DNA of 64,000 bases from a virus, in the IMG/VR virus record IMGVR_UViG_3300010149_000002, positions 14,842 to 78,841 of that record. The stretch is one strand, 5' to 3'. Positions 1-54,622 of this stretch are shown here, piece by piece. Position 1 is the stretch's first letter. The number at the start of each line of letters is the position of its first letter. Under the pieces are notes generated by a model. The model was not told where the DNA came from. It ran no database searches and saw only the letters and a list, made by a program, of their open reading frames with translations. A program made the translations under genes and the position numbers.

Positions 1-87
1 CCAATGTCATACCACACATTAGATTATGAAAAAGAATTAAAATACCACAATAGACTAAAAGAGTTAGTTGATAGATATAAAGTGTAA
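1..87 (+). CDS. 3' end of a hypothetical protein (partial)
   Basis: Open frame from window start (PMSYHTLDYEKELKYHNRLKELVDRYKV) ending in TAA at 85-87. Confidence 0.5.
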   Translation, partial: PMSYHTLDYEKELKYHNRLKELVDRYKV

Positions 88-164
88 TAAAATAATATTG
101 TAGACACGCACTCTCACACCCTAGTGGACACATCACACACACTCAGAAACCCTCACCCCTCCCC

Positions 165-219
165 TGCAAGAACCATGCCAAAAACTTGGCATCATAATTG
201 CATAGCAAGATACATGCCA
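165..219. promoter_or_regulatory. Cluster of three sigma-54 (-24/-12) elements in alternating orientation
   Basis: 165-180(-) TGGCATGGTTCTTGCA; 187-202(+) TGGCATCATAATTGCA; 204-219(-) TGGCATGTATCTTGCT; all have GG-N10-GC spacing. Confidence 0.7.
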
Positions 220-265
220 ACTCTCCTTAAGAAAACTTTAGCTGACAAACATATATTGTTTACAA

Positions 266-660
266 AGAATATACGCACATGCCTACTATGTTGGGCAATG
301 GACAACATCGGACTAAACATATTCTATTGAACTGCCACATATAGTTGGCTTACAGAATACCCTCTAGAATCCATTTAAAAGAATTATATGATACCAAGGT
401 AGGGTAAAATCTAAATGGATTGTAGGGCTATTTATGGGACGATAAGACATTGTCAAGAACTTTATTAAAATGCGAGTAAAGTAAATGCGAGTTGACATTC
501 AGGTTTTATGTCTTGTCAAGGGAATAATGCAATGTGAGTAATGAATCTAAATTGCTCGTATTGATAAATGCGAGTTGTTGCTCACATTATAATTTGCTAT
601 ATTGAATGTATAACATAACGCAACACGTTATTAACTACTAAAGGAGATTTATTTATGAAA
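266..660 (+). repeat. Regulatory module copy 1 (imperfect direct repeat of 1567-1914)
   Basis: Colinear blocks shared with copy 2: GAATATACG..ATGCC.ACTA, TAAAATCTAAATGGATT, TAGGGCTA, AAATGYGAGTTGACATTCAG..TGTCAAG, AATTTGCTATA.TGAAT, TAACGCAA, AAAGGA..ATGAAA. Confidence 0.8.
575..603 (+). promoter_or_regulatory. Sigma-70-type early promoter with extended -10
   Basis: TTGTTG-17-TATATT with TGn extension; RBS AAGGAG and ATG at 655 follow. Confidence 0.55.
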
Positions 661-825
661 AAATCATTTAGCGACTCGAGAATTAAAGAAGCTCAAAGAC
701 TACTAGAAAACGCTTTAAATGCTCAAAATGAGCAGGAAATTAAAGAAGAGCTTAATGAGGTTAGACTCAAGGTTAGTACTCTTTTGGCTCAATTAGGACA
801 TGACTTTAACAAGGTAGGTGCATAA
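655..825 (+). CDS. Small hypothetical early protein (56 aa)
   Basis: AAGGAG RBS; MKKSFSDSRIKEAQRLLENALNAQ...; below the ORF-track size cutoff. Confidence 0.7.
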   Translation: MKKSFSDSRIKEAQRLLENALNAQNEQEIKEELNEVRLKVSTLLAQLGHDFNKVGA

Positions 826-826
826 T

Positions 827-994
827 ATGGGACAAACAACCAATAAATTATTAGAGTTATTAGATGAGGGTATTTTAAATAAAGATACTGTAATTATGGC
901 TTGCTTAAAGTATATGAGTGAGGATGATGTTAACGATATGGCATTGTTAAATGAATTTATTGAAGATACTAATGAATATCCTGAGAATTTATAG
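827..994 (+). CDS. Small acidic hypothetical protein (55 aa)
   Basis: Coupled to the upstream ORF; MGQTTNKLLELLDEGILNKDTVIMACLKYMSEDDV... Confidence 0.7.
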   Translation: MGQTTNKLLELLDEGILNKDTVIMACLKYMSEDDVNDMALLNEFIEDTNEYPENL

Positions 995-1003
995 GGGGGG
1001 GTA

Positions 1004-1096
1004 ATGAAAAGCTTAGATTATATAATAATATTTTTACAGATAATTGCTATAATAATCGGTATCACTATAATAATTAATCATTTTATAATTGTATAA
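1004..1096 (+). CDS. Small hydrophobic membrane peptide (30 aa)
   Basis: MKSLDYIIIFLQIIAIIIGITIIINHFIIV, preceded by a G8 run that could serve as RBS. Confidence 0.5.
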   Translation: MKSLDYIIIFLQIIAIIIGITIIINHFIIV

Positions 1097-1139
1097 TACA
1101 TAAACACATAAACGGAATTTATTTAGTTCAATATCCTAC

Positions 1140-1501
1140 CTTATAAAGTGCCATTTTCTTGTGGCGATCTATTAGTACACTTCATTACACTGAGCATGGA
1201 TGCTTAAAGTGCCTTATATTTTGGGCATTAAAAGACTTACTAGTAGCCGAAAAATTCTACTAATTTGGTCATTTAATACCTAAACACTTATTGTTTACTT
1301 TCATGTTTGGCTTTAGCTATCGAGCTATTTATATAGTCATTTTATTTAGAGATTGCATACTAAATAAAACTTATTGAGGCGTTCGGCAAGGTACTTAATC
1401 TCTCGACACCTTGTGATATACTAAACAGATTTTGTTTAGTGAGGCTATCCTAGTCGGCTCTCTCATGCAATTCTTATGCCATTTTTTAACCGTCCTCAAT
1501 A
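1140..1501 (+). ncRNA. Candidate structured non-coding RNA (unknown family)
   Basis: No long ORF; about 11 consecutive stems plus a long-range closing stem 1372-1379/1494-1501; G-U wobbles favour the + strand. Confidence 0.55.
1466..1481 (-). promoter_or_regulatory. Sigma-54-like -24/-12 element
   Basis: TGGCATAAGAATTGCA. Confidence 0.6.
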
Positions 1502-1518
1502 TTACTATAGTTGTTAAA
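1501..1518 (-). promoter_or_regulatory. Putative phage late-promoter motif, antisense to the early region
   Basis: TTTAACAACTATAGTAAT, identical to the motif upstream of the late gene starting at 42441. Confidence 0.6.
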
Positions 1519-1566
1519 TAATCTTTATTTGTCAAGTTATTTATTAAACCATATAAATTTTATCAC

Positions 1567-1914
1567 AGAATATACGAATATGCCAACTATTTTTGTAAGG
1601 CTAATTTGTTCTCTAAGAGCTTTAAAAGTTTTTTGAATACTAGGTTAAGGATAAAATCTAAATGGATTCTAGCCTATATTGTGTGCCTTATAGGGCTATA
1701 TAGTAAGATTGTTTAGAGTGTTTTTAGTCCGATAAAATCAAATGTGAGTTGACATTCAGTTTATACATAGTGTCAAGAAAAAAATGAAATGTGAGCTTTA
1801 TATATCATTTTGCTCGCATTCTCTAAAAGTGAGTAAATATATATTGAATAATCATATTTAATTTGCTATAATGAATATAGAGATTAACGCAATAAATAAA
1901 GGAATTACATGAAA
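1567..1914 (+). repeat. Regulatory module copy 2, including a sigma-70 promoter (1844-1872)
   Basis: Colinear with 266-660; TTGAAT-17-TATAAT with TGn extension. Confidence 0.8.
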
Positions 1915-2268
1915 ACATCATTTTTAAAAGAAAGCGAAGTAAGTCAAATTTTAAATGCAAACGATAGAAAGTGTGACTATAATGTACATAGTGGTGGGCG
2001 TGTGATAGTTAATCATGAAGCAGGTGCATACAATAGTGGAACTATCAGAAAAGTGAAAGGACTTGACAATATCTATATTGCTTCATGCTCACTTGATTTT
2101 GGTGGTCAGCAATGGGTTGAAGTTTACGATAAAAGAGACTTAAATGTAATAGCTTATTTAAAGTCTGTAAGGACTTTAACAGAATTAAAAAACAGTGAAA
2201 AAGCCCAAGAGGAGTTAAAAAATATTAACGATAATTTAATTTGCTTAGAAAATAAAGGAGTAGTATAA
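1909..2268 (+). CDS. Hypothetical early protein
   Basis: ORF with AAGGA RBS downstream of promoter. Confidence 0.75.
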   Translation: MKTSFLKESEVSQILNANDRKCDYNVHSGGRVIVNHEAGAYNSGTIRKVKGLDNIYIASCSLDFGGQQWVEVYDKRDLNVIAYLKSVRTLTELKNSEKAQEELKNINDNLICLENKGVV

Positions 2269-2463
2269 ATGACACCTAATGAAAAAATGAATTTAAGGCA
2301 TGAAGTTTGGTTTTCACTATCTACAAACCAAAGAAGAAAGTTAACTTCAAATGGAATTTATGCAAATAATTTATATGATTGTCCAGTGTGGTTAATTGTA
2401 AAAGTTACACGTTCTAAAAAAATAATGGATAAGATGCGTAAAATATGGAAATGGTGGACTTAA
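2269..2463 (+). CDS. Hypothetical protein
   Basis: ORF with AAGGAG RBS, abuts upstream gene. Confidence 0.65.
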   Translation: MTPNEKMNLRHEVWFSLSTNQRRKLTSNGIYANNLYDCPVWLIVKVTRSKKIMDKMRKIWKWWT

Positions 2464-2475
2464 GGCGGTGGCATA

Positions 2476-2997
2476 ATGAAATTACAGATTGATAATACAT
2501 TTAACTTTGAACAAAGAAAAGTTATTGATAAATATTTTGAAATTGCAAAGGAAAAATTTAATATTCAAGACAAAATAATTTCTATTGAGATTAAAAATAG
2601 TGGTCGATTAAAAACAAGTGCAGGAAATGCAACAATTTATAGAATAAAGAATTGTGGGATTATTAAAATGAATAAAAGACTGTTTAATAGTACAGTAGGA
2701 ATAAAAGAATTTGAAAACACATTTTCGCATGAGCTTGCCCATGTTATAGCTAATATAATTCATAATTGTAATTGTGGACATGATGCAAGATGGAAAAGGA
2801 CTCATATAGCCCTTGGCGGTAATGCAAAAAGGACTCATAACTATGATGTGAGTCATTTAAGACCTACTAAAAATCGTTTTGACTATAAGTGTAATTGTCA
2901 AATTTTTAAATTAAGTGCAGTAAGGCACAATAAAATGCAAAATGGTAAAGCAAAGTATTACTGTAAAAAATGTAAAGAGTATCTAAAAAGAGTGTAA
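2476..2997 (+). CDS. SprT-like zinc metalloprotease
   Basis: HELAH zincin motif, GHDARWK, C-terminal CxC...CxxC zinc ribbon. Confidence 0.85.
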   Translation: MKLQIDNTFNFEQRKVIDKYFEIAKEKFNIQDKIISIEIKNSGRLKTSAGNATIYRIKNCGIIKMNKRLFNSTVGIKEFENTFSHELAHVIANIIHNCNCGHDARWKRTHIALGGNAKRTHNYDVSHLRPTKNRFDYKCNCQIFKLSAVRHNKMQNGKAKYYCKKCKEYLKRV

Positions 2998-3041
2998 TTT
3001 TTACATAGTATATTGATGCAATGAATAAAAACTGATATAAT
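2993..3041 (+). promoter_or_regulatory. Early promoter with TGTAA-N3-TTACA operator
   Basis: TGTAATTTTTACA, 7 nt, TTGATG-17-TATAAT. Confidence 0.75.
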
Positions 3042-3074
3042 AATTATAGAGAATAACACAAAGGAGATAAAAAA

Positions 3075-3248
3075 ATGAATAATTACAAAGAAAACGGATT
3101 CAAAGATAGAAACGATTATTTAGACTTTTTAGCAGATGATTATGGTGTAAGTGCTTATCAAGTTCATGTGATTGCTCAAATGCTAGGGGAGTCAGAAGAT
3201 TTTGACGGATTAATAACAAGTATTCAAGACTTAAGCGAAGGATTATAA
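3075..3248 (+). CDS. Small acidic hypothetical protein (57 aa)
   Basis: AAGGAG RBS; MNNYKENGFKDRNDYLDFLADDYG... Confidence 0.75.
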   Translation: MNNYKENGFKDRNDYLDFLADDYGVSAYQVHVIAQMLGESEDFDGLITSIQDLSEGL

Positions 3249-3436
3249 TGGAAAATTTAAGATACATTAAAACTAAAGAGAATTTTAAAAAAGATCAGAT
3301 TGTTCAATTAACTGAACCTGATAAAGATAATCAAATTGTTAGACGTTATAGAGTTATTATGTCAAGTGATTTATTTACAGATGAGAGTGATTTATATTAT
3401 ACAATTTTAGAAGAGATAAAAGGAAAGGTGCAATAA
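3248..3436 (+). CDS. Hypothetical protein
   Basis: Translationally coupled ORF. Confidence 0.65.
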   Translation: MENLRYIKTKENFKKDQIVQLTEPDKDNQIVRRYRVIMSSDLFTDESDLYYTILEEIKGKVQ

Positions 3437-4144: not shown

Positions 4145-4361
4145 ATATGAGCAAATAAAATTAGTTGAGGAGTCAGATTTTGTACTAAATGATATTTATT
4201 TAGGTTATTCAGAGTTTTGGGACAAGGTAAACGAAATTGATTTAGACCCTGAAAAACTTACATTGTATGAAAAAGATATAGACATACTATATGATGCTCT
4301 AGTAGACTATATAAAGTTTAGAAGTAATTATAAAAATACATTAAAGGAGCTTATAAAATGA
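4137..4361 (+). CDS. Hypothetical protein
   Basis: Overlapping coupled ORF starting MNKYEQ. Confidence 0.65.
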
Positions 4362-5131
4362 TACAAATTAAAAATAGATTTACAGGTAATGTTATTAGAG
4401 AAGTTGAAAGTCTTAGTGAAGCTAATCTTAGGGGAGCTAATCTTAGGGGAGCTGATCTTAGTGAAGCTGATCTTAGGGGAGCTAATCTTAGGGGAGCTAA
4501 TCTTAGGGGAGCTAATCTTAGTGAAGCTGATCTTAGTGAAGCTGATCTTAGTGAAGCTAATCTTAGGGGAGCTGATCTTAGTGAAGCTAATCTTAGTGAA
4601 GCTAATCTTAGGGGAGCTAATCTTAGGGGAGCTGATCTTAGTGAAGCTGATCTTAGGGGAGCTAATCTTATGGTAGCTAATCTTAGTGAAGCTAATCTTA
4701 GTGAAGCTAATCTTAGTGAAGCTGATCTTATGGTAGCTAATCTTAGTGAAGCTAATCTTAGTGAAGCTAATCTTAGGGGAGCTAATCTTAGGGGAGCTGA
4801 TCTTAGTGAAGCTGATCTTAGGGGAGCTAATCTTAGGGGAGCTAATCTTAGTGAAGCTGATCTTAGTGAAGCTGATCTTAGTGAAGCTAATCTTAGGGGA
4901 GCTGATCTCGAAAAATGTAAAGGTATTCTATCATTTACTTGTGAAAAGCATTTAGGAATATATTTTAAATACGATAATGAATATTATTTTAAGATTGGTT
5001 GCATGACTAATACTGCTAAATGGTGGTTAGATAACTATAAAATAGTTGGTAAGATTGAAGAATATAGCGATAATGATATTAAAAAACATGGTATTATTTT
5101 AGAAGCTTATAGTAAAATAGAATTAGAATAA
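4358..5131 (+). CDS. Pentapeptide repeat protein
   Basis: About 33 A(N/D)L(RG/SE/MV) repeats between a short N-terminal segment and a globular C-terminal domain. Confidence 0.9.
4412..4909 (+). repeat. 15-bp coding minisatellite
   Basis: Units GCT(A/G)ATCTTA(GGGGA|GTGAA|TGGTA). Confidence 0.95.
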
Positions 5132-22799: not shown

Positions 22800-22907
22800 C
22801 GAAATGTAGCTCAGTTGGTTAGAGCACCTGACTATGAAGCAAGCGACTAGGTAACGAAATCGTGAGGCGGAGGGAGGTCGGTGGTTCGATTCCACCCATT
22901 TCGACCA
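22800..22907 (+). tRNA. tRNA-like RNA (Pro-type acceptor end) with an aberrant, expanded anticodon/variable region
   Basis: Acceptor CGAAATG/CATTTCG-A-CCA, D-arm GCTC/GAGC, T-arm GGTGG-TTCGATT-CCACC; 54 nt instead of about 23 nt between D and T arms. Confidence 0.75.
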
Positions 22908-24183: not shown

Positions 24184-26052
24184 TTGGATAAAAAAACTGT
24201 TAATTCTGTAAAAATTGCATCAGATGCTGTAGTTAACACGAAATACGCAAAATATGTACCATCTTTAATGAGAAGAGAGACTTGGGAAGAGATATGTTAT
24301 AGAAATAGAGACATGCACTTAAAGAAGTTCCCACAATTACATTCTGAAATTTTAAATGTATATAATAATTTTGTAATACCTAAAAAAGTATTACCTAGTA
24401 TGAGATCGGCACAGTTTGCAGGAAAACCTGTTGAACTATCTCCTAATAGAGTTTATAACTGTTGTTACCTTCCTATTGACGATTATAGAGCCTTTTCTGA
24501 GACAATGTTTCTTTTGCTTGGTGGAACTGGTGTAGGGTACTCTGTTCAAAACAACCATGTCTCTAACTTACCTAGTATAACTAAGCCTACAAAGAAAAGA
24601 AGATACGTTGTCGGAGATTCGATAGAAGGTTGGGCAGATGCTATAAAAGCCCTAATGAAAGCATATATGAGGGGAAGGAGTTTACCTTTATTTGACTTTT
24701 CTGATATTAGAGAAAAAGGTGCTCCTTTAATTACTAGTGGTGGTAAGGCTCCCGGTCCTGCAGGTTTAAAGGAATGTCTTTTTAAGATGCAACAACTACT
24801 TGACACAAAAGATCATGGGGATCAGTTAACTTCTTTAGAGGTTCATGATTTAATATGTTATATTGCCGATGCCGTTCTAACAGGGGGTATTCGTAGAGCT
24901 GCTCTAATTTGTTTATTTGATCTAAACGATGACTCTATGTTGACTTGCAAATTTGGTAATTGGTGGGAGCTTAATCCTCAACGTGGTAGAGCTAATAATA
25001 GTGCTGTTATTAAAAGAGGTAAAATCACAAAAGAAAAGTTTATGGAATTATGGGAAAAGATAGAAGCAAGTGGAAGTGGGGAACCCGGATTTTACTTTAC
25101 AAATAACACAGATTGGGGTACTAATCCATGTTGTGAAATAGCATTAAGACCTTTTCAGTTTTGTAACTTAACTGAGATAAATGCTAATGATGTTAAGGAC
25201 CAAAAAGATCTAGAAGATAGAGCTAAAGCTGCTGCATTTTTAGGAACACTACAAGCAGGTTATACAGATTTTCATTACATCAGAGACATTTGGAAAAGGA
25301 CAACGGAAAAAGATGCACTATTAGGAGTTAGTATGACAGGTATTGCATCTGGTGCTGTTTTAAATTTAGATCTAGAAGAAGCCTCTAATGTTGTTAAACT
25401 AGAAAACAAAAGAGTTTCAGAACTTATTGGAATTAAACCTGCTAGTAGAACTACATGTGTTAAACCTGCAGGAACTACAAGTCTTGTAATTGGCTCTAGC
25501 TCAGGTATACATGCTTGGCACGATCCTTACTTTATTAGGAGAATGAGAGTTGGTAAAAACGAAGCCATTTACTCATACTTAGCAGAAAATCATCCAGAAC
25601 TTATTGAAGATGAGTATTTTAAACCAAAAGAACAGGCGGTTATATCTATCCCTATGAAAGCCCCAAGCGGCTCTATATTTAGAAATGAATCTCCTATAGA
25701 GTTATTAGAAAGAGTTAAAAAGTTTTCTACTCAGTGGGTTAAAACAGGTCACATAGATGGGGACAATACTCACAATGTATCTGCTACTGTTAGTATTAAA
25801 AAAGGCGAATGGAAAGAAGTGGGAGATTGGATGTGGAACAACAGACAATATTATAACGGACTAAGCGTACTTCCATTTCATGGTGGGTCGTATAAACAAG
25901 CTCCTTTTGAAACCATAAGTAAAGAAACTTACGAAGAAATGGTAGAGCATCTAAAAGAGGTTGATTTTACCAAAGTTGTTGAAAAAGAGGATAATACCGA
26001 CTTGTCTGGAGAAATTGCTTGCGGAGGCGGTGGAGGAACTTGCGATATTTAG
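24184..26052 (+). CDS. nrdJ: Class II (adenosylcobalamin-dependent) ribonucleotide reductase
   Basis: TNPCCEI, FCNL, CVKPAGT, C-terminal C-(G)n-xC pair; no beta subunit nearby; TTG start after AAGGAG. Confidence 0.9.
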   Translation: MDKKTVNSVKIASDAVVNTKYAKYVPSLMRRETWEEICYRNRDMHLKKFPQLHSEILNVYNNFVIPKKVLPSMRSAQFAGKPVELSPNRVYNCCYLPIDDYRAFSETMFLLLGGTGVGYSVQNNHVSNLPSITKPTKKRRYVVGDSIEGWADAIKALMKAYMRGRSLPLFDFSDIREKGAPLITSGGKAPGPAGLKECLFKMQQLLDTKDHGDQLTSLEVHDLICYIADAVLTGGIRRAALICLFDLNDDSMLTCKFGNWWELNPQRGRANNSAVIKRGKITKEKFMELWEKIEASGSGEPGFYFTNNTDWGTNPCCEIALRPFQFCNLTEINANDVKDQKDLEDRAKAAAFLGTLQAGYTDFHYIRDIWKRTTEKDALLGVSMTGIASGAVLNLDLEEASNVVKLENKRVSELIGIKPASRTTCVKPAGTTSLVIGSSSGIHAWHDPYFIRRMRVGKNEAIYSYLAENHPELIEDEYFKPKEQAVISIPMKAPSGSIFRNESPIELLERVKKFSTQWVKTGHIDGDNTHNVSATVSIKKGEWKEVGDWMWNNRQYYNGLSVLPFHGGSYKQAPFETISKETYEEMVEHLKEVDFTKVVEKEDNTDLSGEIACGGGGGTCDI

Positions 26053-33987: not shown

Positions 33988-34284
33988 ACCTCCAACTACT
34001 CCTACTACTGTAGCAAATATACCAAAATACTTTAATAATCTTTTTTGCATTTGTTTACCAATATGATATTCTTCTGCCATCTCTACAATATGTGGTAGTT
34101 TATTTAGAATAGGTTGTATCTCGTTTATAATCTTATTGTCACCTGCAACGTGTTGTTCTACCTTAGACATATGATGTCTTATATCAGTCTTAATTTCATT
34201 AACTTCCATTTTAACTTCCGTTACATCTTCTTTAACACTGTCAATTTTATCTTCCATTCTTTGGAATCTAACTTCGTTGCTCAC
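33958..34284 (-). CDS. Coiled-coil protein with C-terminal TM (XhlA/holin-like)
   Basis: Heptad N-terminus, hydrophobic C-terminus. Confidence 0.55.
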   Translation of the reverse strand: MSNEVRFQRMEDKIDSVKEDVTEVKMEVNEIKTDIRHHMSKVEQHVAGDNKIINEIQPILNKLPHIVEMAEEYHIGKQMQKRLLKYFGIFATVVGVVGGLVKLGVVVI

Positions 34285-34294
34285 CTTTATTCTC

Positions 34295-37129
34295 CTACTT
34301 TTTTCTTAAAAAATATTCTAATTCTTTTGGGTTTACATATAGTTTTTTACGATTATTTAGTATTTGCTTTTCAGTATCTATATTTTTATCTAAGATATCG
34401 TCTTTTTTTTCTTTTTCTATTAAAAAAGTCCTAATGTCTACATGATCAGGGTATTTATTTTGTTCTATTTTACCATCTTTAAAAGTTGTACCTCCCATAG
34501 TGGCTATTGTATCACTACCGTCAACAGGTTCCCCTTCTTTTATTATATTATTAGAATTGTGACCGTATGCAGCATATGTATAATATTCTTTGTCTCCTAT
34601 CTTTATAGTATCTGGATTTTTTATTACAATAGAGTTACCATGTCCTTTAGAGTTTTGATCTACGCCAGATAATACCACATTACCTCCAAACATTGGGTTG
34701 TATTGTATACCTTCTTTATCAGAGTCTAAATCTTTACTAGGAACATAATCATACCCTAGATTAAATTTACCCTTATGGTTTGTGATTTCTCCAGTTTGAG
34801 TATCTATGTAATCTATATCTTTTGATCCATGTCCTAATCCTTTTTCTTTGTCTGCAGCAGTTAACCTTGCGTCTATATTTCCTAATCTAAAAGTCGGAGA
34901 ATAATTTGCAGACTTAACCGTTCCTTCTAGATTTTTATTAATTTTTGTTCCTTTTCTATTTATATCAAAGTTTACATCTTTGTTTAATATATCATCTACA
35001 CTTTCATTATTAGTCTGGGTATATTCATTTAATTTCTTTTCCGTTTCATCCCCATATATACCGTCAACATTAGCACCTATTATATTTTGTATTTTGGCTA
35101 TTTGCTCATTGTTTAGAGATTTTATTTTTAAAGAAGATTGTTCTGTTATTCCTTGAGGACTTCTCTCTATGTCGTTTTGTTCTTTTTTTAAATCTATTCC
35201 ATCTTCTTGTTGTAACATAGGGTCTACAGACATAAATTCACTTGATACGTTTTTTAGTTTTTTTTCTAAAAATTTTTCTAACTCCTTATACCCTTGGCTA
35301 TTTTGTAGTATATGGGAATTTGCTTTAAGTAACCTTTTATCTTTTTTATTATCTAAAGATCTTACCTGATTTGCAACTGGCTTAAACCTACCATTATCTA
35401 ATTTTTCTATTTCATCTGCTGCTTTATTAAAGTTGGTATTAGGATCTTCCATCATTTTTTTATTTTGTTTTAATGCTCTATCCCTAAGTATTTTGTACTC
35501 TTCTTCAGTTAAAGGATCTCCTGATTCTTGTTTTTTTGCTATAGTCTCCATTGGTCCTGTTCTCTCTGCTGATAGAAATCCTAAAACCTCATCAGAGGCT
35601 GTTTGGTCTACTGCAATTTCCATTGCTTCTTCTTCAGTAGCACCTGCAGCAATGGCTTGATCGTATGTTATCATAATACCAGCTCCTGCACCAATAAGAG
35701 GTAAAGCTTTTACAAAACCTTTTGCTAAGGTTCTAGCTGCATTGTAGCTTTTTCCAAGTACGTCACCTGCTCTTACTCCTAAGTTTCTTAGAGAAGTAGA
35801 GTCTATTCCTATTTTCCTAGTAAGGTCAGACAAGTTATACCTATCAGCTAACTCTCTTGTCTTTTTTTCTAATATTTTTAATTTTTCAGGATCTTGGGTT
35901 GATTCTTCAATAAAAGCTTTAAATTTTTGATTTTTTACATCAGAAGATTTACTATCGTCTTCTAAAGATCTTAAAAAATTAGAAACGTCTATTTCTTTAG
36001 ATTTAGAGTCTTTTGTTATGTTTGGGATAAGATCTTCCATGTCTATCGTACTTCTATATGATTTATTGGCATTGTCGTACATTTCCGATTTTGCTTCACC
36101 TAATCCTTGTTTTATTCTATCAGAAATTATACTTTTTATATCTTGTTCTGCTTGTATAATTTTATTATAAATTGGAGTTCTCTGTACCGCTATTGGCGAT
36201 TGGTCTTTTACAGCCCTAATATTTTTTTGAAGGTTCTTTAATCCTTGTGTATCTAAATTGTCAAAATATTTTTTATCCAATTTCTCTATATCTATGGGTG
36301 TAAATTCTCCAGTTTTTATAGGAGTGCTTATTACTTTTCCAGAATCTATATCCAAAGAAGAGACTCTATTTGCTGCCTTTTTTTCTTTTATAGGACCAAA
36401 TGATTTTATTTGACCTAACTCTTCGGCTTCCATTTTTATTTTATTTTGGATGGTTTTTAACCTTTCCTTTGCTTCTTCTAACCCTGATTTTACTTGTTTT
36501 TTACTAACGATGTTATAATCACTTTCTGTTATCTTTTTGCTTTCTAGTAAATTTTGTAACTCTGTTACAGATTTTTTAGACTCTTCAGTTGGTGCTTCTA
36601 TTTCTAAAAGACCTTTTTGGATTTTGTTTAGAGTTTCATTGTAATTCTTTGGTCCAATTTTTTTATCCGTTAAGTTTATCAAAGATCCTATTTTTTTTGA
36701 AGACTCTTTCTTTTGTTTGTCTACTACATTTTTCCAATCTTTTGCGACATCTAATGATTCATCTAATATAGTTTCTCTAGTTTTTGAGGCATCTCCAAAT
36801 AAACCTTTTCCTACTACGCTTTTTCCTTCTGCAGCGTATTTTGCTGATCCTGTTACATCTCCTACAAATGGTACTTGTCTACTGCCTTCCACAATAGTCG
36901 ATCCTGTGTCTTCTAATCCTGCTCCTAATAGTTCTAGTATTTTTTGGCTTCCTTTACCTGCAGCATATCCTGTTGTACCTCCGAAAATAGGTCTTACTTC
37001 TGTAGGTAGCTGTTCTAATAAATTATCACTATTTCCATCTAATGGTAAATCTTCCCAATCATCCTCTTGAGATTGGCTTTCAGATAATAGCGGAATATCT
37101 TCCCAATCATCTTTTTTATTGTCTTCCAT
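34295..37129 (-). CDS. Large internal virion/ejection protein with peptidoglycan-binding and M23-like peptidase domains
   Basis: VDGIYGDETE PG-binding motif; GHGNSIVIK..YGH..IATMGGT..DHVD M23-like motifs; DDWED repeats. Confidence 0.7.
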   Translation of the reverse strand: MEDNKKDDWEDIPLLSESQSQEDDWEDLPLDGNSDNLLEQLPTEVRPIFGGTTGYAAGKGSQKILELLGAGLEDTGSTIVEGSRQVPFVGDVTGSAKYAAEGKSVVGKGLFGDASKTRETILDESLDVAKDWKNVVDKQKKESSKKIGSLINLTDKKIGPKNYNETLNKIQKGLLEIEAPTEESKKSVTELQNLLESKKITESDYNIVSKKQVKSGLEEAKERLKTIQNKIKMEAEELGQIKSFGPIKEKKAANRVSSLDIDSGKVISTPIKTGEFTPIDIEKLDKKYFDNLDTQGLKNLQKNIRAVKDQSPIAVQRTPIYNKIIQAEQDIKSIISDRIKQGLGEAKSEMYDNANKSYRSTIDMEDLIPNITKDSKSKEIDVSNFLRSLEDDSKSSDVKNQKFKAFIEESTQDPEKLKILEKKTRELADRYNLSDLTRKIGIDSTSLRNLGVRAGDVLGKSYNAARTLAKGFVKALPLIGAGAGIMITYDQAIAAGATEEEAMEIAVDQTASDEVLGFLSAERTGPMETIAKKQESGDPLTEEEYKILRDRALKQNKKMMEDPNTNFNKAADEIEKLDNGRFKPVANQVRSLDNKKDKRLLKANSHILQNSQGYKELEKFLEKKLKNVSSEFMSVDPMLQQEDGIDLKKEQNDIERSPQGITEQSSLKIKSLNNEQIAKIQNIIGANVDGIYGDETEKKLNEYTQTNNESVDDILNKDVNFDINRKGTKINKNLEGTVKSANYSPTFRLGNIDARLTAADKEKGLGHGSKDIDYIDTQTGEITNHKGKFNLGYDYVPSKDLDSDKEGIQYNPMFGGNVVLSGVDQNSKGHGNSIVIKNPDTIKIGDKEYYTYAAYGHNSNNIIKEGEPVDGSDTIATMGGTTFKDGKIEQNKYPDHVDIRTFLIEKEKKDDILDKNIDTEKQILNNRKKLYVNPKELEYFLRKK

Positions 37130-42470: not shown

Positions 42471-42488
42471 ATTACTATAGTTGTTAAA
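42471..42488 (-). promoter_or_regulatory. Putative late promoter
   Basis: TTTAACAACTATAGTAAT about 30 nt upstream of the ATG at 42441. Confidence 0.65.
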
Positions 42489-48290: not shown

Positions 48291-48307
48291 ATACTATAGT
48301 TGTTAAA
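48291..48307 (-). promoter_or_regulatory. Putative late promoter
   Basis: TTTAACAACTATAGTAT. Confidence 0.65.
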
Positions 48308-53723: not shown

Positions 53724-54622
53724 TATAGTCTCTCTTTTAGAACGCTTAATATTTGGTTTTTAGCAGTATCTCCATAAGTAACAGTAACTGTTTGTACAGG
53801 AGTACCTTGGTAACTATATGTATAGAAATCAGTAACAGTATCTGGGAATGTAGTGGCAATTTCATCCCAAATAACTTCGTTTGCGTTTAGTACATTTAAA
53901 GTTTTTTTACCATTAACTTTACTAAAACTACCATTAGACATTACAAATTTACCATTGTATATATTGTATGTATAGTCTTTTAATTCTTGAGATTGCCATA
54001 TAGGGTTTCCCTCTGAACTATAAGTTAATTTTATTCTTTCAACTTCTTCTCTATCACCTGATTGATTGCTAATTACAAAACTAGTACCACCATCTATTGT
54101 ATTATTTGTTATACCTAATTTATTAGTAGTTATTTCTAATACCGCATTTTTTCTAGTTACTTTAAATATACTATTGATACTTTCTAATGCACTTTGTAGT
54201 GCAAATGCTACTACTCTAGCATCATCATTTTCTTGTATATTTACAGGTATATTAATGACTCCAGTTATATCAGGAGGATTTCCTATACCGTCTACTATAA
54301 AGTAAGGAGCGTATCTAGCTTCTTTTCTACCACTAGAGATTATAATGTAAGATCCTGCTAGTGAAAAATTAATATCTTCTATTACTCCTATAGTTGTTAA
54401 ATGTGGCTTAATTCCTGCAAAATAACAAACCTCTTCTGGTTGACTATTAGAGTTATATGTCACTGTAAAACAATCAAAATAAGACTGAACCAGTGTCAGC
54501 GACTCTTTAGTTCTAATATAATGACCCGGTAAAGAATGGGCATCTTTTAGAACTTGCATACCATCGTACTGACTAGTACCGGTAACATCCTCTACTTCAA
54601 TGTCATTTCTTTTCTTTGTCAT
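53723..54622 (-). CDS. Virion structural protein
   Basis: Beta-rich; shares a module with the 1327-aa protein. Confidence 0.65.
   Translation of the reverse strand: MTKKRNDIEVEDVTGTSQYDGMQVLKDAHSLPGHYIRTKESLTLVQSYFDCFTVTYNSNSQPEEVCYFAGIKPHLTTIGVIEDINFSLAGSYIIISSGRKEARYAPYFIVDGIGNPPDITGVINIPVNIQENDDARVVAFALQSALESINSIFKVTRKNAVLEITTNKLGITNNTIDGGTSFVISNQSGDREEVERIKLTYSSEGNPIWQSQELKDYTYNIYNGKFVMSNGSFSKVNGKKTLNVLNANEVIWDEIATTFPDTVTDFYTYSYQGTPVQTVTVTYGDTAKNQILSVLKERL

Follow-up and report, generated by a model that had tools for sequence, protein, structure and literature searches.

Promoter-equipped structured RNAs are rare in virulent phages and mostly unexplained. In the phi29 family, the gene for the pRNA lies near the genome end and is transcribed toward that end from an early promoter, and two loops of the RNA are kept complementary by covariation. 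Phages of this type package with an ATPase that has no terminase nuclease domain, and they replicate by protein priming. Virulent phages such as T4 also make antisense transcripts against early genes from late promoters, none of which, to our knowledge, has a conserved multi-domain fold, and we likewise know of no conserved folded RNA downstream of the T7 promoters phiOL and phiOR. These two are gene-less phage promoters that lie near the ends of T7 DNA (PMC6171733).

Here we describe an element of an uncultured phage that, by analogy, appears closest in kind to the orphan large structured phage RNAs ROOL and GOLLD, with which it shares its phage-borne occurrence, a length of several hundred nucleotides, multiple covarying helices, conserved unpaired blocks and near-palindromic loops. 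Unlike them, it is smaller (~280–370 nt), matches no Rfam model at E ≤ 10, has so far been seen in only four sequences, all from a single group of uncultured phages, and has a dedicated, putative late-type promoter. As in phi29 pRNA, the element lies near a presumed genome end, would be transcribed toward that end and has a covarying loop pair whose sequences differ between relatives; in contrast, it matches no pRNA model, its promoter is late-type rather than early, and its phage has a genome of 79 kb, encodes a large terminase, a portal and a major head protein of the classical kind, and has replication genes for a family A polymerase, a DnaB-like helicase and a primase. Given these ordinary packaging and head proteins, a packaging RNA of the phi29 type is unlikely. 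As with phiOL and phiOR, the promoter serves no protein gene and stands near a likely genome end, but here it is flush with a covarying 280-nt fold, and no T7-like RNA polymerase was found. With the late-promoter antisense RNAs, the element has in common a late promoter directed against an early unit and the lack of an open reading frame (ORF) of its own, whereas the part that is conserved is the fold and not the gene-antisense region.

Genomic setting of the element

The window analysed here, a stretch of 64,000 nucleotides, spans bases 14842–78841 of the 78,841-bp viral record IMGVR_UViG_3300010149_000002, whose ends overlap by 123 bp, so that the map is circular or concatemeric. The genome (~33% G+C) is divided into a plus-strand arm of replication and early genes (rIIA/B, family A DNA polymerase, DnaB-like helicase, primase, Erf and ribonucleotide reductase) and a minus-strand arm of virion genes that include the large terminase (phrog_2, E 4e-35), portal and major head protein; Pfam and PHROG gave no match for most virion proteins. 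The closest DNA polymerase, at 47% identity, is that of a Flavobacterium phage, the remainder of whose genome is unrelated. Genes are preceded by strong AGGAG ribosome-binding sites and the early modules contain TTGACA/TATAAT-type boxes, neither of which are usual Bacteroidota signals. Elsewhere in the window, an early 257-amino-acid protein (4358–5131) consists almost entirely of (A/S)(D/N)L(R/S/M)(G/E/V) pentapeptide repeats and has a related copy in the relative L073, and a 105-nt Rfam tRNA call at 22800–22904 (50.9 bits, full model), not reported by ARAGORN, may hold an insertion or intron.

The element sits at the start of the early arm (Table 1). Its preliminary description had placed it between two duplicated control modules, and repeat comparison confirmed the duplication. 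The convergent arrangement of early promoter, small genes, RNA and late promoter is kept in the window phage (genome G000) and in its relatives G003 and G001. At the outer edge of this region lies a C/A-rich, G-poor tract (88–205 in the window, 4020–4134 in L073 and ~24500–24720 in G001), followed by a 7-bp palindrome, ATGCCAA...TTGGCAT, which in the window carries TGGCAT-N5-TTGCAT; the G001 tract holds several TGGCA(C/T)-N5-TTGC boxes. Besides the RNA, this tract is the sole non-coding DNA in window positions 1–3300 that aligns between clades (73%), and it could mark a physical genome end or a sigma-54-type early promoter. A pattern built from the palindrome matched L073 only.

Table 1 Features of the locus in window coordinates; helices are given in RNA sense (5′ strand/3′ strand of the probable minus-strand RNA)
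Feature	Position	Strand	Description
Conserved C/A-rich tract and palindrome	~100–205		Start of early arm
Early control module A	~240–650		
Early operon	655–1096	plus	Three small early genes
Flagged stretch	1140–1501		Between modules A and B
Variable part	1130–1223	.	Clade-specific hairpins 1149–1166, 1191–1206 and 1208–1229; conserved TACACTTC
H8	1260–1280/1224–1243	minus	Three-part long hairpin; 15 pairs, 100% paired, 4 compensatory
H7	1308–1313/1281–1286	minus	Encloses conserved GAAAGUA; 5 pairs, 4 compensatory
H6	1323–1327/1314–1318	minus	AGCU/AGCU; stem invariant, 4-nt loop varies; conserved AAAGCC follows
H9	1360–1369/1340–1349	minus	10 bp in window phage; clade 2 has a hairpin with unrelated stem
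5′ multibranch domain	1373–1500	minus	Closed by H1 and H1b; holds H5, invariant block, H3 and H2
H2	1408–1413/1387–1392	minus	6-bp stem; 4 of 6 pairs compensated
H3	1434–1440/1420–1426	minus	In all four homologues; shorter in clade 2 (CUAAC/GUUAG)
Invariant 14-nt block	1443–1456	minus	CGACUAGGAUAGCC; identical in all four homologues, most conserved part
H5	1478–1480/1456–1458	minus	19-nt loop; middle pair G-C in one clade, C-G in the other
H1b	1490–1492/1384–1386	minus	1 of 3 pairs compensatory
H1	1494–1500/1373–1379	minus	7 pairs, 4 compensatory double changes, 100% paired
Orphan late-motif copy	1502–1518	minus	Reads TTTAACAACTATAGTAA; plus-strand letters TTACTATAGTTGTTAAA
Early control module B	~1529–1900		Followed by further early genes
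Other late-motif copies	42472–42488, 48291–48307, 54385–54401; genome positions 1916, 3495, 8201, 11239	minus	

Homologues in two clades

Comparison of the region with cultured phages by megablast and blastn returned no close relatives, and neither did tblastn of a virion protein against cultured phages or related-locus searches with a SprT-like protein, a 119-amino-acid protein and rIIA. The protein of a neighbouring gene has just 6 relatives among 5.8 billion proteins. Relatives were sought by scanning IMG/VR for the late motif described below, followed by tblastn, and scans with conserved blocks added more. The first approach reached L073 (on G003), which is syntenic over the early end and aligns to window positions 1224–1519 at 70%, and G001, a 74.4-kb relative with the same element (L080). 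Among the pattern scans, one with two blocks of the RNA added only L088, identical to L080 across the element; one of metagenomes added L089, which is closely related to the window phage; a third block pattern yielded nothing beyond chance hits and already known loci; and one of genome contigs gave 10 chance hits, all in unrelated high-GC genomes.

The comparison set thus comprises four distinct sequences, all from uncultured phages, that fall into two clades: clade 1 with the window phage and L089, and clade 2 with L073 and L080. Between the clades the element is ~70% identical, at a distance where neighbouring proteins are 45–70% identical (window phage against relatives, tblastn) and the flanking regulatory DNA can no longer be aligned: across window positions 1–3300, only 10–204 and 1224–1519 still align with clade 2, at ~70%.

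A non-coding element outside the known RNA families

All six frames of the element are closed in all four homologues, with 5 to 19 stops per frame, and the longest open stretches (14–51 codons) are not common to homologues, which leaves no conserved small ORF. At the gathering threshold of Rfam 15, the tRNA mentioned above is the sole match in the whole window, with none at the element. Permissive scans (E ≤ 10) of the element in the window phage, L089 and L073 returned noise, such as 18 bits for sR21, where 45 are needed, and 17.3 bits for xrRNA class 3, where 31 are needed, and no match was common to two homologues. Taken with the covariation below, these results uphold the preliminary description of the stretch as a structured non-coding RNA of unrecognised family, and the comparative evidence, good for the size of the family, indicates that the folded non-coding RNA is real and represents a new, uncatalogued family.

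RNAs of the CsrB/RsmZ type, which act as protein sponges, carry many GGA motifs in hairpin loops. By sequence inspection, the element has one to three GGA per strand, far below sponge RNAs and too few for this candidate, which we rejected; one site lies in the invariant CUAGGAUAG block and another in the plus-strand loop of hairpin 1191–1206. A scan for intrinsic terminators (G+C-rich hairpin followed by a U run) found no site on either strand of window positions 1–2500, nor on the minus strand in the 900 bp beyond, while the same scan does find a canonical terminator after the capsid gene. The hairpins are accordingly no cluster of terminators as far as this search can tell.

Fold and covariation

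Compared with dinucleotide shuffles, the flagged 362-nt stretch folds with z −2.31 on the plus strand (2 of 100 shuffles as good) and z −2.94 on the minus strand (0 of 100). Taken alone, these scores are modest and give no strand; short hairpins are frequent in an AT-rich genome such as this one, so that chance hairpins, or a terminator cluster with no further function, would be one way to account for the stretch. Covariation argues strongly against it. Alignments A3 and A4 were made with MAFFT, unfitted to any structure, and RNAalifold recovered identical helices from them for either strand, with 22–28 compensated pairs. The secondary structure scored on A4 has 54 pairs with 99.1% of cells paired and 19 with compensatory double changes, a level of covariation reached by 0 of 500 shuffles and far above slid controls (0–2 double changes, 28–44% paired). 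On A6, which includes the kissing helix described below, 33 pairs are 97.6% paired and 13 show double changes, reached by 1 of 500 shuffles and again far above slid controls (0–2 double changes, 27–37% paired); each such change may reflect a single event, because there are only four distinct sequences in two clades. Since conservation also exceeds that of the flanking non-coding DNA, we regard hairpins without function as extremely unlikely.

The resulting fold consists of a 5′ multibranch domain followed by four more hairpins (Table 1). Its conserved core is ~280 nt long (window 1500 to 1224) and possibly ~370 nt with the variable tail. The 15-nt loop of H2, GUCGAGRGAUUAAGU, is nearly invariant across the four homologues. 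Invariance also limits what the alignment can say: H6 gives no covariation evidence either way because its stem does not change, and the stem 1443–1447/1451–1455 is without support in either direction because it lies in the invariant block, where nothing varies.

Covariation had been named as a check in the preliminary description, and on the four-sequence alignment it was found, beyond both shuffles and slid controls. The stems listed there all exist in the sequence and most of them hold. H1, H2 and H3 are backed by compensatory change, and the hairpin H9 is retained in the other clade with an unrelated stem sequence. The stem 1241–1246/1257–1262 is supported as well, as the tip of the longer helix H8. 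By contrast, 1281–1286/1292–1297 is not a conserved pairing, the covarying partner of 1281–1286 being 1308–1313 (H7). Helix H5 and a covarying loop–loop contact, 1465–1471 with 1352–1358, had been overlooked. With seven covarying helices plus a tertiary contact that covaries too, the evidence is unusually clean for such a small set of sequences.

Left of position 1224 the two clades carry different hairpins, and hairpin 1191–1206 is retained in L089 with a wholly different stem. This variable part may be either the 3′ part of a minus-strand RNA or a set of 3′-untranslated hairpins belonging to the convergent plus-strand early operon. Read on the plus strand, hairpin 1191–1206 (~5010–5033 in L073) presents a GGA-containing loop (UGGA, AUGGAA or AAGGAUAA) on three unrelated stems, in the window phage, in L089 and in clade 2, much like a CsrA-type binding hairpin. 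Rather than being part of the minus-strand RNA, it may lie at the 3′ end of the transcript from the early operon.

A putative late-type promoter motif aimed into the element

A 14–17-nt motif, TTTAACAACTATAG, with the fuller form (T/A)TTTAACAACTATAG(T)A, occurs in 8 copies in the window phage genome and 10 in G001, and also in the fragments G002, G004 and G005. All copies share one orientation, which in the window phage is the minus strand. Most stand 19–35 nt, and in the window phage 28–33 nt, ahead of the start codon of a minus-strand gene in the virion region, the portal gene among them; for the major-capsid gene the distance is 175 nt, and the copy at window 54385 falls inside a gene. From this position and conservation, we assign the motif as a putative late promoter.

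The copy beside the element is an exact consensus 17-mer, identical to the copies before two virion-region genes, and is followed by no ORF for more than 1.3 kb; in both complete genomes (G000 and G001), the element's copy is the sole one with no gene behind it. The orphan motif is also found beside the element in L089, L073 and L080, so that in all four homologues it is aimed into the element, with 5–9 nt between the motif end (TATAG) and the closing helix H1. By this motif, the element would belong among the late-promoter transcription units of the phage group.

T7-group promoters end in ACTATAG, as the late motif does. We dropped a T7-like polymerase as the enzyme behind the motif after PF00940 gave no match in this phage, a weak negative, as the control genomes gave none either; searches for a polymerase or sigma factor serving the motif identified none.

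Several side observations concern the sequence just downstream of motif copies. The capsid-gene copy (genome 3470–3497; G001 34279–34305) is followed at once by a 7-bp hairpin, within a leader of 175–185 nt; G001 retains this hairpin although its sequence there differs, so that it is probably a 5′ stabilising stem. The H5 region of clade 1 (window 1466–1487, minus strand) reads AAAAAATGGCATAAGAATTGCAT, a copy of the box at 181–203 that resembles a sigma-54 −24/−12 element, here 22 nt downstream of the late motif. The two boxes form a 23-nt inverted repeat (181–203/1465–1487) in the window phage that is absent from clade 2. As a defining feature of the RNA, the sigma-54 box (TGGCAT-N5-TTGCAT, 1466–1482, minus strand) was rejected, since it occurs in clade 1 only and is replaced in clade 2. 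At the same spot, all four homologues hold a start codon, one codon and UAA (AUG GCA UAA; UUG GCA UAA; AUG CCU UAA), which may well be chance.

The strand that is probably transcribed

Raw counts of G·U pairs are circular as evidence of strand, because the prediction for each strand collects that strand's own G·U pairs. We therefore restricted the comparison to one-sided substitutions inside covariation-supported helices. Six internal cells qualify (A4 columns 257/316 and 272/301 in the window phage, 267/306 in L089, 32/155 in L073, and 260/313 in L089 and L073), and every one is G·U on the minus strand and C·A or A·C on the plus strand, with none of the opposite kind at internal positions. 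Three of these changes fall in H8 (U·G on minus, C·A on plus), and at column pair 260/313 the other two sequences have U-A and A-U. G·U pairs specific to the plus strand occur at terminal pairs, in the invariant 1443–1455 stem or in the variable left part.

With the flush motif aimed into the element and internal G·U pairs on the minus strand, the RNA is probably a minus-strand late transcript that starts at ~1495–1503; we infer the transcript, its 5′ and 3′ ends and its timing from sequence features. The preliminary description had favoured a plus-strand RNA, which is not supported given the leftward-facing late motif in all four homologues and the internal wobbles. Its argument from G-U pairs stood for the terminal pairs, the invariant stem and the left hairpins, and was reversed by the six changes in the covarying core.

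An RNA of the plus strand, either the 3′ untranslated end of the early operon or an early non-coding RNA serving as stabiliser, insulator or decoy, nevertheless has several points to recommend it. With no terminator between the early operon and the element, transcription probably covers the plus strand as well; the Watson–Crick helices form on both strands with similar folding z-scores; and the invariant G·U pairs (1444/1454 and the base of H3), the left hairpins 1191–1206 and 1208–1229 and the clade-2 AGCUCC/GGGGCU stem with its GGA-containing loop are all better on that strand. Set against these are the lack of a dedicated promoter, a conserved motif that faces the opposite way and is flush with the closing helix, and four internal C·A mismatches plus two A·C at a covarying pair, where the minus strand has G·U. 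We therefore hold a plus-strand RNA to be distinctly unlikely.

A covarying contact between two loops

The H5 loop (1465–1471) is complementary to the H9 loop (1352–1358), at the same loop positions in all four sequences: AUUGCAU/AUGCAAU in the window phage, UGCAU/AUGCA in L089, UGUACA/UGUACA in L073 and UGUAC/GUACA in L080, with longest complements of 7, 5, 6 and 5 nt, respectively. Three of the 7 positions of this helix show compensatory double changes between clades, 92.6% of its cells are paired (A6), and the complementarity has shuffle P values of 0.010 in the window phage and 0.018 in L073. We read H5–H9 as a covariation-supported kissing or pseudoknot contact. It may well be intramolecular; as the loops are near-palindromic, pairing between molecules is also allowed.

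Such pairing could go further. An RNA made alongside the virion proteins might self-assemble through its covarying loops into a dimer or ring used for head assembly, end-processing or packaging, or might itself be packaged, a proposal that we consider improbable and put forward as speculation. If true, a phage that packages with a terminase would have an RNA assembly comparable to pRNA or ROOL.

The same contact bears on whether the conserved unit is RNA at all. A replication origin, packaging or end-processing site, activated by the orphan promoter, could form hairpins when its DNA is single-stranded or supercoiled; the element is ~1.3 kb from the conserved C/A-rich tract and palindrome, a possible physical genome end, gene-less promoters near the T7 genome ends offer a precedent (PMC6171733), and G·T pairs are tolerated in DNA hairpins as well. 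However, a closing helix that spans 128 nt, a nested multibranch architecture and a covarying loop–loop contact typify RNA and not cruciforms, and the element contains neither iterons nor an AT-rich unwinding tract. A DNA-level element is thus very unlikely in our view.

Proposed function

On balance, we think it probable that the element is a gene for a structured non-coding RNA, produced as a leftward late transcript and acting in trans by means of its shape and of the single-stranded blocks that do not vary. Transcription of the minus strand would occur late in infection and start within a few nucleotides of H1, and the RNA would then act as part of a ribonucleoprotein, a protein decoy or a scaffold, perhaps self-associating through its near-palindromic loops. 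We infer action in trans because selection keeps the shape, the tertiary contact and the single-stranded blocks of 14–15 nt; these preserved features exceed the needs of a leader, a terminator or a plain antisense RNA and therefore favour a role beyond a terminator cluster or simple antisense transcript. Our searches found no partner protein or target for the RNA. In the rest of G000 and G001, 11-mers complementary to the RNA lie scattered, are no more frequent than chance would give and do not correspond to homologous positions of the RNA; a trans-acting small RNA that base-pairs with phage targets was rejected for want of conserved complementarity in either genome.

The main rival is a leader acting in cis, whose fold would stabilise or modify a long leftward late transcript that crosses the early operon and the promoter module of that operon in antisense direction and shuts off early genes late in infection by antisense pairing or polymerase collision. 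Read-through is likely on a minus strand with no intrinsic terminator over the scanned interval, the convergent layout is retained in the three genomes named above, and the late transcript of the capsid gene likewise begins with a 5′ hairpin. Yet ~280 nt with seven covarying helices, a tertiary contact and invariant 14–15-nt blocks are more than such a leader needs, and the sequence of the early operon is not conserved between clades whereas the RNA is; we judge a cis-acting leader unlikely. Under the trans-acting reading that we prefer, the same transcript may still run antisense into the early operon as a secondary effect, which is plausible because no intrinsic terminator follows the element.

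The regulatory setting is clear in either case, with a dedicated late-type promoter that is convergent with the first early operon and near a presumed genome end. If the RNA is part of a late ribonucleoprotein or assembles with itself, the late programme of a phage that uses a terminase would gain an RNA component; if it is mainly a silencer of early genes, it would be a well-defined case of structured antisense control. Either way, the locus would pin down a new RNA family and a late promoter motif for a group of uncultured estuarine or marine phages.
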